A stretch of 31,072 nt of DNA from Candidatus Aenigmatarchaeota archaeon (GTDB taxonomy: Archaea > Aenigmatarchaeota > Aenigmatarchaeia > QMZP01), in the NCBI GenBank assembly GCA_016202745.1, contig JACQOB010000168.1, forward strand, positions 1 to 31,072. The letters run 5' to 3'. A model generated the notes under the pieces. The model ran no database searches and had not been told where the DNA came from. It saw only the letters and a list, made by a program, of their open reading frames with translations. Position 1 is the first letter of the stretch; each line of letters starts with the position of its first letter. This document shows, piece by piece, positions 4,231 through 10,200 of this stretch. The position numbers were made by a program, and so were the translations under genes.

Positions 4231-7200
4231 GTGGTTGTAACGAAGGGAAAAACAGGGATATATGTATTACTGTCCATGTTGATTGCAGTGCTTGCTTTTG
4301 CGCTTATTGTTAATGTGACTTCTGCCTTCAACCCAATAGATTCTGATGGTGACAGCGTACCGGACGGTATTGACAACTGCCCCTTTATACCTAATCTTAA
4401 TCAGGCTGACACAGACCTGGACAATATAGGTGACGCCTGTGATTTTGAGGTTTCGTCCTGTGCCACCCTGTCTCAACCGGCGCATTACGCCCTCTTAAAT
4501 AACATAACCACAAATGCAACGATCTGTATCAACATAAATTCCAGCAATGTGGTTCTCGACTGCCAGGAGCACAGCATTATCGGATTGGGCGCTGCCGGAA
4601 GCGGGGTAAACATCCCATACCCGTCCAACTTTGTAACCGTGAAGAACTGCATCATCCTGAACTTCTCAACCGGCATCGAAATCACCGGCCTGAATGGCAC
4701 TTTAATCAACAACACACTACTGCGCAACGGCCTTGGAGTCTATTTCAACACCTACAGCACTAAGATGGAAAACAACACCCTGAATAATAACCAGCAGGGC
4801 GTATTTGTTTCAGGTGAACGCAATCTGATAACAGGGAACAGCATTTCCGGATCCAGTTCTAGCTGGGGCATGTACATTGACACATTCTCGATTTCAAATG
4901 TCATATCTGGGAACCATATTACAGGCAATTCCTACGGAATTCTTGCCCCCTCTGTGCCCGCCAGTTCCTTCAACAACACAATATATAACAACTATTTCAA
5001 CAACACGGTCAATGCAAATGCGCTGGGAAACGCCAACATATGGGACATCGCCAAGACACCCGGAACTAACATAGTGGGAGGCCCCTTCCTAGGGGGCAAC
5101 TTCTGGCATGATTACAACGGGACAGACAATGACGGGGATGGCTTGGGGGACACTGACCTGCCATACGATGGCGCGGGAAACATAGGCAACGGGGATTTCA
5201 GGCCTCTGATTCCGCCTTCTGCGTTTGCCTCATTCATATATAATGCCGTCCTGGAGGTCTTGATTGTTGAGAGCGACCCTGGAGACCCCGAATCTTCCAC
5301 GCCGGAATTCTTTGATTGCCCTGTCAGCGGATTTGCAGTCATAAATGATGGGGATTTCGACAAATACATTGCCAACCTGTCAACAGGCTGCGGCGGAACC
5401 ACGACAGGAATAAAGAGCATGTCCATCACTTTTGGCGGCAACACATACAATGGAAACCCCGCCAGCGACATATTCATCACAGACAGGAGCGCCACCTATT
5501 ACGCCTGGATAGTGAGCGAGCCTGAATTCCAGCTCCATGCAAGCAAGAAGGTTGCAGAAGATCTCAACCATCCATTCCACTACACTATTTATGCCAACGG
5601 AACTGTCAGCCCGCCGCAGAACTTCTCATACGAAATCAATGCAGTGGGCACGGAAGACTTTACAGACTACAAGACAGTAGACTTCGTACGGACCGAAACA
5701 GTCCCAGGTTCATGGAAGTTCAGCAAGGATTGCGAAAAACGCACCTTCAGCCGGCCGGTTGATGCCCTGTACGAGTACACTGGAATCCAGAGTATATCAT
5801 CGGAAATAAAGGGTGGCGGGTCTGTACAAACCCCCAGCTTGGATAACAATAACTTCATTGTTCAAGCTGAGGTCTGCAACAGGAGGCTTCTTAAGGGATG
5901 GGTGACACTGAAAAGCAAGTTGAATGAGAAAGGCATACTTAACAGGGAATGGTCGCAGGTGCAGACGGGGCCAGGATTCCCAGTTGTCAACGGCGATCCT
6001 AGGGTGACTGTCGCAACTTATAACAAGAAGATCGGTTCCGATCTGCCCAATACAATACAAAGGTCTACTGACCCCATTTCACCCAACCTGGTGGATTACA
6101 AGCTGAAGTCGAGCAACCCTAATGTGCAGCTGGCAATGATTGATAATACAAAAGAATTGACAGCAATAACATTCTACACTGAGCCGTGGAGCGACACTGC
6201 AGAGGGCGATGGCGGCATAAACAAATCGGCAGGCGTCAGGAACATAACTCAATTCAACTCAGTAGCCCCGGACAACAATACCGAATATTCCACCTTCCTT
6301 ACAGTCAACTGCCAGGATTGCGATCTGCCAGTCCGCTACGCCGACAGGAACGGGGACGGCATGGTGGAGGCAGGGCAGTATATCGCCTGGATGGACGGAT
6401 TCAACGTAACTGTGGGCCCGGTCGACAACATTCTCTTTGCTGCCGTTGACGTTGAGCTGCCGCAGGGCTTTATTGATGTCCCACCATCATTCCCATCCCC
6501 AACCACTTCCCTGTACGGGCAGAACGTCAGCTTTGCAGGGCACGGGGTGCCGCCGGCGGGGGGTCAAATAGTGGGCTGGTTCTGGAGGTCCCACAGGGAC
6601 GGCAGGCTTAACTCCAGCGCATCCTTCATGACAGACAGGCTATCGCCTGCAAACCCGCACCATATAAGCTTCAATGTGTTGGACAAGGCAGGCCTGGTGT
6701 CGCCGCTTACGGGTGATTCTAGAAGGCTCTTAATAATTAACAAGCCACCCACCGCCTTTATCAGGTACGTAAAAGGGTCGCTGGACGACACAGGCCAAAT
6801 TCTGGCCATAGCCGGTGAGGATGTTGAGTTCAACGGCTACGGCTTTGACACCGATGGCTCCATACAAGAGAACAGGTGGGATATAGATGGCACGGTGTAT
6901 AGCAGTTCTACAAATGGCATAGCCACCCACAGATTCACAACAGTCGGCACCAAAATGGCGACTTTCACGGTCCTGGACAATGCCGGCACATGGTCCAAGC
7001 CAGTCTCAAGGCGGATCGAGGTCATCAAGCACCCCGTTCTGCTGGTGCATGATTACCTGAGAAGCCCAGCCGAGATGGAGAAGATCAAAGTCGCATTGGA
7101 GCAGGACGGCTTCCAGGTGTTTACCGCAGACCTCAGGAAGCCGGTCAACATTGACATATCCACTTCAATTCCGCTGAAGACTCCTGAAATGCAGAATCTT

Positions 7201-10200
7201 GGGTACTTCTATGCCGTGCTGGACAAGGGAAGGAAGGTCTACGAAGGCATCAAGGAGCTTAAGGGGCTTGCCGGCAGCAATGATCCGAAGGCTGTCGGGA
7301 TAAAGAACAGGATCCAGGCGACAAACAATGACCTGAGAAACACGCTAAACCTGATTAAGTACAAAGTGAAGGGCCAGACGGGCCTGGCAACAGCTGTGGA
7401 CAATTTCGTCCTCGTCACAACCAAGGTAGACACTCTGCTAGGCGAGGATAAACTGAATGACCTTCTCGCCCTTATCGATTCGGACCACTTCATTGATGAC
7501 CTCTGGAAGACGCTGCTGGACAATTACAAGTTCACCATAGAGGTCCCGATAAAGAAGGAATTCTTTGTCACAGACATTTCAATCCCGGTGCCCCTGCCGG
7601 ATAAGGTCAAGCTTATAGTCCAGGGGATGATACAGACCGGGGCAATAAAAATACCCGGGCGGCTGACGATCTTCAAGAAGGAGGTTTCCTATTCAAAGAA
7701 CGGAGTGAGCGGCAGCGTGAGCATGGCGCTGGTGGTGAAGGACATAAAGCCTCTATTCGAGGACAAGATAAAGCTTAAGGGGTCGCTGTTTGTTTCTGAC
7801 ATCTCATTCAAGCTTGACCCGTCCTCTGCAACCTCAATGCCCAACAAGATGAACCTTTTCGAGCAGGATTGCAGCGCAACCCCCCTGGACTGCAAGATGG
7901 AGGCTGAGTTCGTCATCCCGCAGAGCGAGGCGAATGGGGCGTGTACGGAATGCAATGCAGCGGACTGGACCAATACAATCCAGGGGGCTATAGCACAACA
8001 GGCAAAAGACCTATTAGGCAGCCATTATGTATTTGGAACTGAAGGCCAGGAGATCAATAAAACATCTAAACCCCTCAAAAGCGGAGCGACGATAGATGAT
8101 AATGAGGTAGTATCTGCAACAGTTAAGAAGATCAGCGGTGTAGAGGTTAACCACCATACTGCATTCCATACGACGACTGATCCATTACAGAATTTGAATG
8201 ACTTGGGAAATCCCACGTTTGTTAGTACGTCCGCAACCATTGGCGATGTTAATAATGCCGAGCACGCTGACCATAAAAAAAACCCCGGGAAATACGTTTG
8301 GAAAAGAACTAAAAGCAATACCGATAACGCAATTGTGACTGGTGAGCCAAGCAATGATCACCAGCTATTTGATTGTTCTGGATTTGTTTATTATGTCTAC
8401 AATAACGTCGATGCTAACCTAAAAAGAAATTGGTATAGTGCGGCAAATTTAATGAAGCAAGTCACTGATCTGAGAGATGTTGATTATAAGAAATTAAAGG
8501 ACCCTAACAGTGACGAAGTCAAGAAGTTAGAGCCTGGAGACCTTTGTTTTGCGAAAAATCCCAAAACTGGTGTGTTTAATCATGTATTAATATGGGTAGG
8601 TTATGAGTTAAATAAGGAACCTCTTATACATGCGTCTGGAAGCGAGAAAGGTGTTATCGCTGCAAATGCTTATACGTCTGAAAAAAGTGTAGTTGCCAAA
8701 TGTGGCAGGTACCTAAAAGGAACTGAATTTGATATAAAGACTGATGTTATTTTTGGCAGCAACAGCGTGCAGTCCCTTTCCTCCCTGGCTAGCGAAGGAT
8801 CCGATGTTTCAATCGAAGGTGGCAGTACTGCAGGGAACAATGGCCAGGACCCCAAGAACTATCCACAATTGAAGCTGAGGCTGAAGATGAGCAGCTCGGT
8901 CATTAACATCAAGCTCGCCAACCAGGACATCAAGGCCTCCGCGCAGGAGATAGGGAAGCAGATAGACGAGATAAAGAAGAAGACTGGCGTGAAGAAGGTG
9001 GACATTGTGGGGTCGGGGATGGGTGGCCTGGCTGCGCACTATTACACCAATTATGGCTACAGGTACGATGTGCGGAAGCTGTCGCTGATTGGCGCGCCTC
9101 TTCATGGGAGCGACCTGATGAAATACGGCCCGATGATTGCGAAGGCCCTTATCGACGCCCTGGCTTCGCAGGCGCCTGGCCTGGGCAAGATACTAGGGGA
9201 CATAGCGAAGGCCCTGCTTGACATAATTCTTGGCGATGCGGCGGGCCAGATGGAACCGCATTCCTCGTTCATTGAAGCCCTTAACCTGAACGGGAAGGAT
9301 GCGGCACCTGAATGGGCATTGTACAAATGGACCGGCGGCGATGATCTCAGGAACAACAATGTCGAGTATCAGGTTATTGCCGGCGTCGGGCCCAGGGTTG
9401 GCGGCGTCTCCCTCCCGCTCACTTTAAGCCATGTGCACGCCAGAATACCGCTAATCAATACACTTATAACGCTCCCGTTCATCTGGAAGGGCGACCTGAT
9501 GACCAATTCGGTCAGCAATGACCTGGACGGCACCTCCACTGAAGAAGTCGGCGGATTAAGCAGCTACCACTGGTGGCTGGCAAAGAACGATGGGACCGGT
9601 GGGACCATAGATCTGGTCAAGGCTTTCCTTAACCAGGCTGTCACGCTTCAGGGTGCAGAAAGCAATGGAATCAGCCCGCTTGACGCCAGCTTAACGCCTG
9701 ATATTGAGGAACTTATCAACAGGACGTCCTATGAAATTGTTGGCCCTGTTGCGGGCGCGATAAACACGAGCCAGGTCAATGTGCACAATATTGCCCTTGA
9801 TTCGCTGGCAAAGAACACAACCTTCAAGCTCCAGTACAGCCCTGTATTCGCGTACTTCAATGACTCGCTGGATGATTATGTGGAGTGCACCAACCTGCTG
9901 GACTTTACACTCATAAAGCCTGACCAGTCAGTAATAGGCCCGTCCCAGGCGGACAACATCTCAATAACCTATTTGTATGCAAATGACACACTTACATATA
10001 TCATCAGCAGCCCTGAGGCAGGAACATGGGGAATGGCTGTCACGGGCGTAAGTGTAACCTGCCCTGAAGCGAGTTATACCGCCTTAGCAGCCTATAATTC
10101 ATACCTGGCACTGGGCGCCACAACAGGCAGTGCGCCGTTTGAGCCTGGCACCAACGGCACAACATCATTTGAGCCCGGCAAAAATGTCACAATAATGGCC

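Follow-up and report, generated by a model that had tools for sequence, protein, structure and literature searches.

The window, a stretch of 31,072 nucleotides, comes from a groundwater DPANN archaeon with a genome of about 1 Mb and contains ORF2, which encodes a giant surface protein (Table 1). Besides a split-hydrolase module, the ORF2 gene product comprises a signal/anchor helix at its N terminus, a TSP3 repeat and NosD/beta-helix, PKD and CARDB domains; the gene next to ORF2 encodes a SurA-like chaperone. A genome of the same genus and those relatives that carry names belong to Aenigmatarchaeota, Micrarchaeota and Nanoarchaeota. The family is rare (about 15 representatives among 1.8 billion), so the diversity of its cargo rests on few sequences. 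BLAST comparison of the ORF2 gene product with P0003 gave two HSPs, aa 35-1235 (43% identity) and aa 1509-3286 (54%), and a similar two-HSP pattern was obtained with P0004, P0005, P0007 and P0010. Judged from sequence comparison, the whole protein of about 3300 aa is alignable end to end across this DPANN family with the exception of a single slot. Such a giant, conserved family-wide with one variable slot, is new here.

Table 1. Features of the ORF2 gene product and its split-hydrolase module.
Feature	Nucleotide positions	Strand	Residues (aa)	Basis or remark
ORF2, giant surface protein	4231..14310	+	3359 aa	
N piece, strand-helix-strand	7021..7134	+	931-968	hhalign, AF2 model
Insertion between pieces		+	969-1562	594 aa
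Conserved stalk	7135..7935	+	969-1235	
Variable cargo cassette	7936..8790	+	~1236-1520	unalignable with most relatives; low GC3
NlpC/P60 catalytic core	8359..8673	+		Pfam PF00877
Return segment	8791..8916	+	1521-1562	alignment of relatives
C piece of alpha/beta-hydrolase fold	8917..9651	+	1563-1807	hhalign, Pfam, pLDDT 81-98

The N piece of the hydrolase module includes PVLLVHD (aa 935-941, nt 7033-7053) and FTADL (aa 964-968, nt 7120-7134), and the hydrolase fold picks up again at LANQDI (aa 1562-1567, nt 8914-8931). These coordinates bear out the original prediction that an insertion of about 595 aa cuts the N-terminal strands and helix off from the rest of the fold; in uninterrupted relatives the same loop is a gap of 1-14 aa. 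When aligned with the uninterrupted relatives by hhalign, the N piece matched columns 6-45 with a probability of 98.3% (E 1.5e-14), and the C piece matched columns 47-244 with a probability of 100% (E 9e-45). Pfam alpha/beta-hydrolase models matched only from profile position 55-63 on, at aa 1551-1713, so that the beginning of the profile has no counterpart in this region. DUF915 was detected on the C piece only (24.5-28.7 bits versus a cut-off of 22), where Abhydrolase_1 scored under its cut-off. The hydrolase frame of the AF2 model had a pLDDT of 80-98, and in its N piece a helix at 19-31 lay between strands at 9-12 and 36-39 (model numbering), with a pLDDT of 90-97. VIA-align superposed residues 6..881 of the model on residues 3..181 of Bacillus subtilis LipA (1i6w) over 169/179 residues with an rmsd of 2.0 A and a Z of 19.1; 6nkc was superposed over 166/172 residues at 1.5 A, and the Z for 5h6g was 22.9. 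True lipases were the best structural matches, with Z 19-23 for whole lipase chains. Based on the adjoining hhalign columns and the model, the N and C pieces form one alpha/beta-hydrolase fold of the lipase/PGAP1-like branch, as had been expected of the two halves, and its central sheet and the helices on either side follow the canonical order.

The nested order proposed for the insertion (strand, helical bundle, strands, NlpC/P60, returning strand) agrees with the secondary structure of the AF2 model. In the stalk, modeled with a pLDDT of 82.8, a first strand (aa 973-981) is followed by a helical bundle (aa 985-1098) and then by a beta-rich part (aa 1103-1228) that contains long hairpins. The helical part resembles only generic four-helix bundles (Z 13), and no structural match was found for the beta part. 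The N piece and stalk of 13 relatives are 26-50% identical to those of the window. Homology to the relatives breaks off at aa ~1212-1281 and restarts at aa ~1509-1540, and the return segment carries the conserved strand YPxLKxxLxLSS (aa 1546-1554, nt 8866-8892; strand 619-627 of the model). The cassette between these points contains an NLPC_P60 domain at aa 1377-1481 (E 1e-9 to 2e-10, 38-41 bits versus a cut-off of 23) with Cys1382 (8374-8376) in FDCSGF, His1451 (8581-8583) in NHVLIW and His1467 (8629-8631) in IHAS; the FDCSGF, HV.I and IHAS motifs align with their counterparts in the solved NlpC/P60 enzymes 7cfl and LytE 8i2d. The cargo of the window also matched tail proteins with lysin activity in PHROGs (E 4e-9). 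The NlpC/P60 superfamily includes acyltransferases and phospholipases as well. Cargo relatives were too few for alignment, which left the cargo region of the model, where a papain-like fold would be expected, with a pLDDT below 50 and makes its position relative to the hydrolase domain unreliable.

The slot is occupied by other enzymes in other members of the family. Pfam identified a subtilase S8 with an I9 propeptide in P0003 and P0004, an N-acetylmuramoyl-L-alanine amidase of the Amidase_3 family in P0006 and P0007, a GH25 lysozyme in P0009 and a papain-like Peptidase_C1 in P0011 and P0012; P0015 has a distant NlpC/P60, P0005 an endolysin match (E 5e-5) and P0008 a marginal endolysin match (E 6.6e-3). 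The Amidase_3 cargo is alignable with Clostridioides difficile Cwp6. P0006 and P0010 are sisters (SH-aLRT 100) whose C pieces are 78% identical and N pieces 49% identical, and their cargo is unrelated. With different enzymes in the same slot of related archaea, the protein resembles a naturally occurring holder into which envelope-degrading enzymes can be plugged. The cell-wall peptidase on a stalk that was originally proposed holds for the window, where the NlpC/P60 motifs are intact, but several cargo enzymes are interchangeable and this peptidase is just one of them, so that a peptidase on a pedestal becomes one instance of a more general cassette holder.

The cassette has a foreign codon composition. 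Its GC3 is 0.35-0.40, whereas that of the frame is 0.71 and the median of the genome is 0.66; only 1.1% of the long ORFs of the genome have a GC3 of 0.40 or less. Across the cassette block GC3 is 0.25-0.45, and in the flanks it is 0.70-0.83. The GC3 of the cargo was below that of the frame in five of five loci; instead of five separate acquisitions of foreign DNA, a common cause, selective or mutational, could also have produced this pattern.

The hydrolase fold lacks two of its catalytic signatures. The elbow reads VGSGMGG (aa 1593-1599, 9007-9027), within which G-S-G-M-G-G (9010-9027) departs from the elbow consensus Sm-X-Ser-X-Sm-Sm. Gly1596 (9016-9018) holds the nucleophile position and aligns with the Ser of H-S-M-G-G relatives, and Ser1595 (9013-9015) lies one residue before it; a phmmer search of the PDB likewise aligned G-W-S-Q-G-G of lipase 7v3k with G-S-G-M-G-G and placed Gly at the nucleophile. 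The H-G motif of the oxyanion loop is replaced as well, V-H-D standing in place of V-H-G with Asp941 at nt 7051-7053. Both substitutions had been read from this DNA before, and homologs with and without the insert were found in which the elbow and the oxyanion motif could be compared. HG is invariant in 25 uninterrupted relatives. Gly occupies the nucleophile position in all 11 relatives with a recorded elbow, and the 10 split relatives with both pieces recorded have HD, except for P0007, which has PD. Among 112 scored relatives, 85, which make up most of the remainder, combine H-S-M-G-G with HG, one combines HG with Gly, and none combines HD with Ser; Asp at the HG position is paired with a Gly nucleophile in 13 of 13 cases. 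Other relatives without the Ser nucleophile have Asp, Glu or Asn instead. As far as the aligned relatives indicate, the loss of Ser and HG is fixed across the clade.

In contrast to the nucleophile, the catalytic Asp1755 (9493-9495) and His1780 (9568-9570) are retained. They match the D and H that are invariant throughout the family (alignment A5 columns D216 and H241) and, together with the surrounding G-D-L and H-W motifs, do not vary among 12 sequences that are 46-62% identical to the C piece of the window. The invariance of these residues and the coupling of HD to Gly indicate that the pocket is under constraint, which is unexpected for a purely inert socket, and the pocket may bind something or be rewired. 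The description of the domain as an inactive lipase is therefore sustained with regard to the stable loss of Ser and HG in the clade, but the word "dead" needs a caveat.

These features probably describe a non-catalytic socket and stalk that display exchangeable envelope-degrading enzymes, an interpretation drawn from the sequences and the AF2 model. The lipase/PGAP1-like domain, without its Ser nucleophile and oxyanion-loop Gly, would serve as a structural socket through which the polypeptide of the giant passes into and out of the module. A conserved stalk of about 270 aa would grow out of the loop that joins the fourth strand to the following helix and carry the exchangeable hydrolytic enzyme at its tip, and the conserved strand would then lead back into the fold. 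Recombination within the conserved flanks would exchange the cassettes, and the protein may attack the envelope of neighboring or host cells by cutting peptidoglycan or surface proteins.

The constraint on the pocket bears on two other readings. The hydrolase may have been rewired, such that Asp941 or Ser1595 forms a new catalytic center with His1780/Asp1755 and the module is a head of two enzymes, an esterase or lipase and a peptidase. The invariance of Asp1755 and His1780 across diverged sequences, the strict pairing of HD with Gly, the two origins that the HD and Gly state requires on the ML tree and the retention of Ser1595 in 11 of 12 clade members all favor this reading. Gly, however, occupies the position of the elbow that defines the nucleophile, and Asn replaces Ser1595 in P0012. 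In this fold the residue preceding the nucleophile generally turns its side chain out of the pocket, and the oxyanion turn is expected to need the Gly in HG, both of which would count against rewiring. A single origin of HD and Gly was not rejected (AU p 0.19), so their coupling may be a single event, and the replacement of Ser by Asp, Glu or Asn elsewhere suggests a family prone to non-catalytic roles; we consider rewiring unlikely. The repeated losses of the nucleophile among relatives that retain the fold, the invariant pocket residues and motifs, the true lipases as top structural matches and the extracellular location predicted by the signal/anchor helix are also consistent with a targeting or adhesion domain, in which a remnant of the pocket would position the enzyme by binding a ligand of the target cell, either a lipid or an envelope component, by analogy with neuroligins. 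The lipid binding suggested in the original prediction belongs to this reading. The stalk, however, emerges on the side of the active site, where it could lie over the pocket, and Asp and His may be conserved for structural reasons. A binding role seems improbable as the main function; it would be compatible with a socket and differ only in the role given to the pocket.

An artefact or decay would account for the locus as an assembly chimera, as a pseudogene with a recent Ser-to-Gly change or, for the elbow, as a Rossmann G-x-G-x-x-G nucleotide site. The composition changes sharply at both cassette junctions, and short, weak NCBIfam NAD(P)-binding matches (E 0.006-0.04) lie over the elbow. Against these points, contigs assembled independently from three groundwater runs span the two junctions as well as the elbow without any difference, the frame is open for 3359 codons, relatives from at least three DPANN phyla among those with names share the split, the Gly and VHD or VPD, and the superposition extends over whole lipase chains. 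The independent bridging contigs, the shared features of the relatives and the lipase superposition refute these explanations, which we regard as having almost no likelihood.

The socket and stalk differ from the systems that they most resemble. The fold, strand order, elbow, HG-loop and Asp and His positions are shared with the lipases LipA 1i6w, Streptomyces 5h6g and MAJ1 7v3k, and the closest families with detectable sequence kinship are Pfam Lipase_2, PGAP1 and DUF915 of the alpha/beta hydrolase clan. Unlike the lipases, the domain has Gly for Ser and HD for HG and is interrupted by 594 aa after the fourth strand, inside a surface protein of 3359 aa. Neuroligins, which are cholinesterase-like adhesion molecules, also have Gly for Ser and keep the hydrolase fold in a non-enzymatic role at the cell surface, but they are eukaryotic, belong to the carboxylesterase type B branch and have neither a nested enzyme nor an exchangeable cassette. 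Phage tail and tape-measure peptidoglycan hydrolases likewise embed a lytic domain in a long structural protein, whereas the ORF2 gene product is a cellular archaeal surface protein whose holder is a dead lipase fold; a tblastn search of 50,697 phage records gave no match at E 1e-3.

Rhs, CDI and archaeal polymorphic toxins, the last reportedly described by Makarova and coworkers in 2019, also combine a long conserved carrier with a variable enzymatic warhead of differing composition. The ORF2 family has such a carrier and an enzymatic domain that varies between close relatives. The warheads of polymorphic toxins are C-terminal tips, usually with immunity genes, whereas the ORF2 cassette is internal (aa ~1236-1520 of 3359); no cognate immunity gene was evident, and no candidate was seen in the loci of two relatives. 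More tentatively, and with some doubt on our part, the family could be a polymorphic-effector system of archaea whose design is new, with a platform of about 3300 aa, one internal slot made of the rewired lipase fold and stalk, and foreign lytic cassettes that are exchanged by recombination between DPANN lineages and used to breach bacterial or archaeal neighbors. In the same tentative vein, the split fold could act as a clasp that joins the halves of the giant once a protease cargo has cut off its propeptide; P0003 and P0004 have an I9 propeptide inside the slot. Archaea, prominently Nanoarchaeota, encode peptidoglycan hydrolases of the bacterial type that were probably acquired horizontally, according to the available part of PMC12352652. 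The enzymes covered in that part are modular combinations of catalytic and cell-wall-binding domains, unlike the ORF2 gene product, and it contains no mention of a lipase, hydrolase fold, split fold, stalk or swappable internal slot. The original prediction knew of no description of this architecture, and none was found in the literature for the combination of split lipase fold, stalk and cargo.

The module is a clear natural case in protein evolution of a putative pseudoenzyme reused as an insertion socket, in which cassettes are exchanged at one constant internal position. Because HG-to-HD and Ser-to-Gly are strictly paired, the former active site may have been rewired instead of lost. As a template provided by nature, the socket and stalk could also be used to display enzymes on a rigid scaffold. 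To our knowledge, how ultra-small DPANN archaea attach to, feed on or kill other cells is largely unknown. The exchangeable head, whether a peptidoglycan amidase, muramidase, endopeptidase or protease, is a testable candidate for a cutting tool of DPANN archaea, and the types of cargo suggest that some of them target bacteria.

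The two pieces of the lipase/PGAP1-like domain in ORF2, the 3359-aa giant surface protein of the window, belong to one alpha/beta-hydrolase fold. The matches to Pfam hydrolase models started no earlier than profile position 55-63 and thus lacked the first strand, helix and strand. By a full HMMER search, 163 relatives were recovered among 1.84 billion representatives, and in the uninterrupted ones 'PVLLVHGY...V..D' is followed after 1-14 residues by 'ANGDI...KVDLV.HSMGG'. Three alignments were built, one of N pieces (A4), one of C pieces (A5) and one of 25 uninterrupted domains (A3). 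The N pieces aligned with columns 6-45 of the uninterrupted domains (hhalign, probability 98.3%, E 1.5e-14) and the C pieces with columns 47-244 (probability 100%, E 9e-45), ranges that adjoin without overlap. An AlphaFold2 model of residues 928-1810, made with a 60-row alignment, had a pLDDT of 80-98 in the N piece, the C piece and the stalk alike. In VIA-align comparisons, model residues 6..881 matched the whole minimal lipase LipA (1i6w 3..181) over 169/179 residues at 2.0 A (Z 19.1), and the model matched 6nkc over 166/172 residues at 1.5 A and 5h6g with a Z of 22.9. The coordinates of the original prediction were all correct on re-checking, its expectation that the halves pack into one alpha/beta fold was borne out by hhalign, the model and VIA-align, and the nested order that it described is that of the secondary structure in the model (strand, long helices, strands, cargo, returning strand). 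A reading of G-x-G-x-x-G as a Rossmann site was ruled out by fold and homology.

Coordinates of features in ORF2 and elsewhere in the window
Feature	Window position (nt)	Residues	Remark
ORF2	4231-14310 (+)	1-3359	also TSP3, NosD/beta-helix, PKD and CARDB domains
N piece		931-968	first half of split domain
PVLLVHD	7033-7053		in N piece
FTADL	7120-7134		in N piece
Stalk		969-1235	conserved part of insertion
Inverted repeat, 12 nt	7881-7892 / 7976-7987		left cassette junction
Cargo cassette		~1236-1520	variable part of insertion
NLPC_P60		1377-1481	domain match
Return segment		1521-1562	conserved part of insertion
Alpha/beta-hydrolase		1551-1713	partial domain match
C piece		1563-1807	second half of split domain
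LANQDI	8914-8931		fold resumption
Elbow V-G-S-G-M-G-G	9007-9027		Ser1595 at 9013, Gly1596 at 9016
SurA-like protein	14351-15073		between ORF2 and ORF4
Low-GC3 island	903-1205	ORF1 301-401	inside Peptidase_S8 domain
Low-GC3 island	17354-17716	ORF4 761-881	inside Peptidase_S8 domain
Low-GC3 island	18134-18316	ORF4 1021-1081	just beyond S8 match (aa 658-989)

The insertion consists of a conserved stalk, a variable cargo and a return segment, again conserved, that contains the strand 'YPxLKxxLxLSS'. The giant protein can be aligned with relatives on either side of the cargo: ORF2 and the relative P0003 aligned over residues 35-1235 (43% identity) and 1509-3286 (54%), and P0004, P0005, P0007 and P0010 aligned likewise, only residues ~1236-1508 not being alignable. 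Relatives were 26-50% identical to the N piece plus stalk of the window. A model of the stalk alone (residues 966-1240; pLDDT 82.8) contained a set of helices, three long and several short, and then long beta hairpins. The helical part matched generic four-helix bundles only (Z ~13, background for helical bundles), and the beta part had no match in the PDB by VIA-align, in AFDB clusters or in the Atlas. A match to the pore-forming toxin SmhA was weak (E 7.1) and was not borne out. In a sister group (P0017, P0018, P0020, P0022, and P0028), this loop also carries an insert, of 603 aa in P0020 and of 164-228 aa in the others. These five keep HG but have Asp or Glu where the nucleophile would be, and the catalytic His is missing as well from P0017 and P0020. 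Compared against the alignment A2, the 165-230-aa inserts of the sister group (P0017, P0018, P0022, P0023, and P0028) had no detectable homology to the stalk (probability 0.2%).

The cargos of the relatives are enzymes of several families: Inhibitor_I9 plus Peptidase_S8 (P0003 and P0004), Amidase_3 (P0006 and P0007), Glyco_hydro_25 (P0009), Peptidase_C1 (P0011 and P0012) and, in P0015, a distant NlpC/P60 of the same odd subtype as in the window (29% identity). The cargos of three relatives had no Pfam match; a resemblance to phage endolysins was seen for one of them, P0005 (E 5e-5), and only a marginal match for another, P0008 (E 6.6e-3). The window cargo has its catalytic Cys1382, His1451, and His1467 within motifs of solved NlpC/P60 enzymes and matched PHROG tail-protein families with lysin activity (E 4e-9). 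The Amidase_3 cargo aligned well with the Cwp6 amidase of C. difficile, and the Asp, His, and Ser motifs are present in the S8 cargo of P0003. No matches were obtained for the window cargo alone (residues 1290-1530) in a word-indexed search, for the whole cargo by phmmer against the PDB at E 1 or by tblastn against phage records, and an ESM Atlas feature search with the module gave no usable match.

The nucleophile serine of the fold is replaced by glycine. A phmmer search against solved structures aligned G-W-S-Q-G-G of lipase 7v3k with G-S-G-M-G-G, which places Gly at the nucleophile, and Gly occupies this position in 11/11 relatives with the elbow on record (G-S-G-M-G-G or the variants A-S-G-M-G-G, G-S-G-K-G-G, G-N-G-M-G-G, and G-S-G-M-G-A). 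The oxyanion-loop motif is V-H-D in the ten relatives with both pieces on record, except for V-P-D in P0007. Asp1755 and His1780, the triad acid and histidine, were invariant together with the flanking G-D-L and H-W across 12 sequences whose identity to the C piece of the window is no more than 46-62%. Motif pairing was scored in 112 relatives with both motifs: 85 had HG with Ser, HD or PD was accompanied by Gly in 13/13 cases, HD never occurred with Ser, HG occurred once with Gly, and in ten others HG or QG was combined with Asp, Glu or Asn in place of the nucleophile. The clade lost the catalytic serine long ago, and the loss is fixed. Two origins of HD plus Gly were needed on the maximum-likelihood tree, and a single origin was not rejected (AU p 0.19). 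Three uninterrupted domains (P0049, P0110, and P0122) have the same pairing of V-H-D with Gly; because they branch off in another part of the tree, a second origin of the pairing is possible. The shifted Ser1595 is unlikely to act as a substitute nucleophile because P0012 has Asn there; moreover, the side chain before the nucleophile is directed away from the pocket in the alpha/beta-hydrolase fold. The description of the domain as a dead lipase holds in part: the domain no longer has the canonical serine mechanism, yet constraint on the pocket persists, which makes a binding role or a rewired centre possible. The same genome also contains an ordinary copy of the domain with FLHGH ... IVAHSMGG (HG and A-H-S-M-G-G), apparently active, at the end of contig C25 (locus L002, 1219-1782) downstream of a Cys-rich, sequon-rich protein.

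A tree made from the hydrolase columns only placed all insert-bearing sequences in one group (SH-aLRT 95), within which the clade with large inserts had a support of 98. P0006, with Amidase_3, was sister to P0010 (support 100), whose cargo has no assigned family, and the other Amidase_3 bearer, P0007, grouped with the window and the S8 bearers; frame phylogeny does not predict cargo type, which speaks for exchange of cargos. Between P0006 and P0010, identity was 78% over the C piece and 49% over the N piece plus stalk, and their cargos had no similarity.

Base composition also changes at the cassette. In the window, GC3 was 0.70-0.73 up to residue ~1240, 0.25-0.45 up to residue ~1520 and 0.72-0.83 beyond. 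Across the 542 genome ORFs of at least 250 aa, GC3 had a median of 0.658 and was at or below 0.40 in just 1.1%; the frame therefore looks native and the cassette foreign. An assembly chimera was ruled out as the source of the step by separately assembled contigs from three runs, which bridged both junctions and the elbow with zero differences. Cargo GC3 was lower than frame GC3 in 5/5 loci examined, which fits repeated acquisition from AT-richer donors; one common cause could also have lowered GC3 in all five. No direct repeats flanking the cassette were found. The inverted repeat at the left junction is 92% complementary, with 83 nt between its arms, and may be due to chance. In two of three groundwater runs, assembler word depth was ~40% lower inside the cassette at 8258-8830 (10.6 to 5.8-7.6; 7.7 to 0-4) and contigs broke up there; GC bias or strains with another cassette could cause the drop. 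The islands in the neighbouring giant genes ORF1 and ORF4 have a GC3 of 0.35-0.42 against gene means of 0.53-0.64, and the enzyme heads of these giants may be foreign cassettes too, though without a lipase-like socket.

The window is an entire 31-kb contig of a 1.02-Mb, 74.5% complete genome and is filled by very long genes; ORF2 begins with a hydrophobic signal/anchor helix. Named relatives come from metagenome-assembled genomes of Candidatus Aenigmatarchaeota, Micrarchaeota and Nanoarchaeota, archaeal housekeeping genes neighbour their giant genes, and the source samples are groundwater metagenomes. The family of split-domain giants is rare: clustering at 50% left ~15 representatives. Contig scans located it three times among 185,579 species genomes and four times in the metagenome collection; each of these loci was already represented in the protein libraries, and no further members were added. 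Among 60 related genomes, only the same-genus one contained the family, with an S8 head (48% identity). Synteny with this genome (78% complete) was not found: ORF3 was absent from the matches and ORF4 had weak matches only. The small protein between ORF2 and ORF4 has a SurA-like N-terminal chaperone domain (Pfam SurA_N_3, E 4e-13), and a query with it did not find a counterpart in the same-genus genome. On a Nanoarchaeota contig (locus L004, 7357-9768), a divergent gene directly adjoining the P0010 giant gene encodes an 803-aa protein with alpha/beta-hydrolase and PGAP1 matches.

An alpha/beta-hydrolase pseudoenzyme, domain insertion, polymorphic warheads and lysins embedded in long proteins are each of a known kind. 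In a literature search, neither an internal exchangeable slot in a split, serine-less lipase fold nor the split-domain giant-protein family was found described; the original prediction likewise knew of no description of the architecture. We infer that the lipase-like domain would serve as a socket within the backbone of the giant protein, with the stalk projecting from a loop on the former active-site face and presenting a single enzyme that could be replaced through recombination in the conserved flanks. With heads that are either peptidoglycan hydrolases or proteases of broad action, the likely use would be to cut the envelopes of neighbouring or host cells. Archaea are not known to contain peptidoglycan; bacteria are therefore the targets that the amidase, muramidase and NlpC/P60 heads would suggest. 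Bacterial targeting would fit the prominence of peptidoglycan hydrolases in Nanoarchaeota, as reported in PMC12352652.
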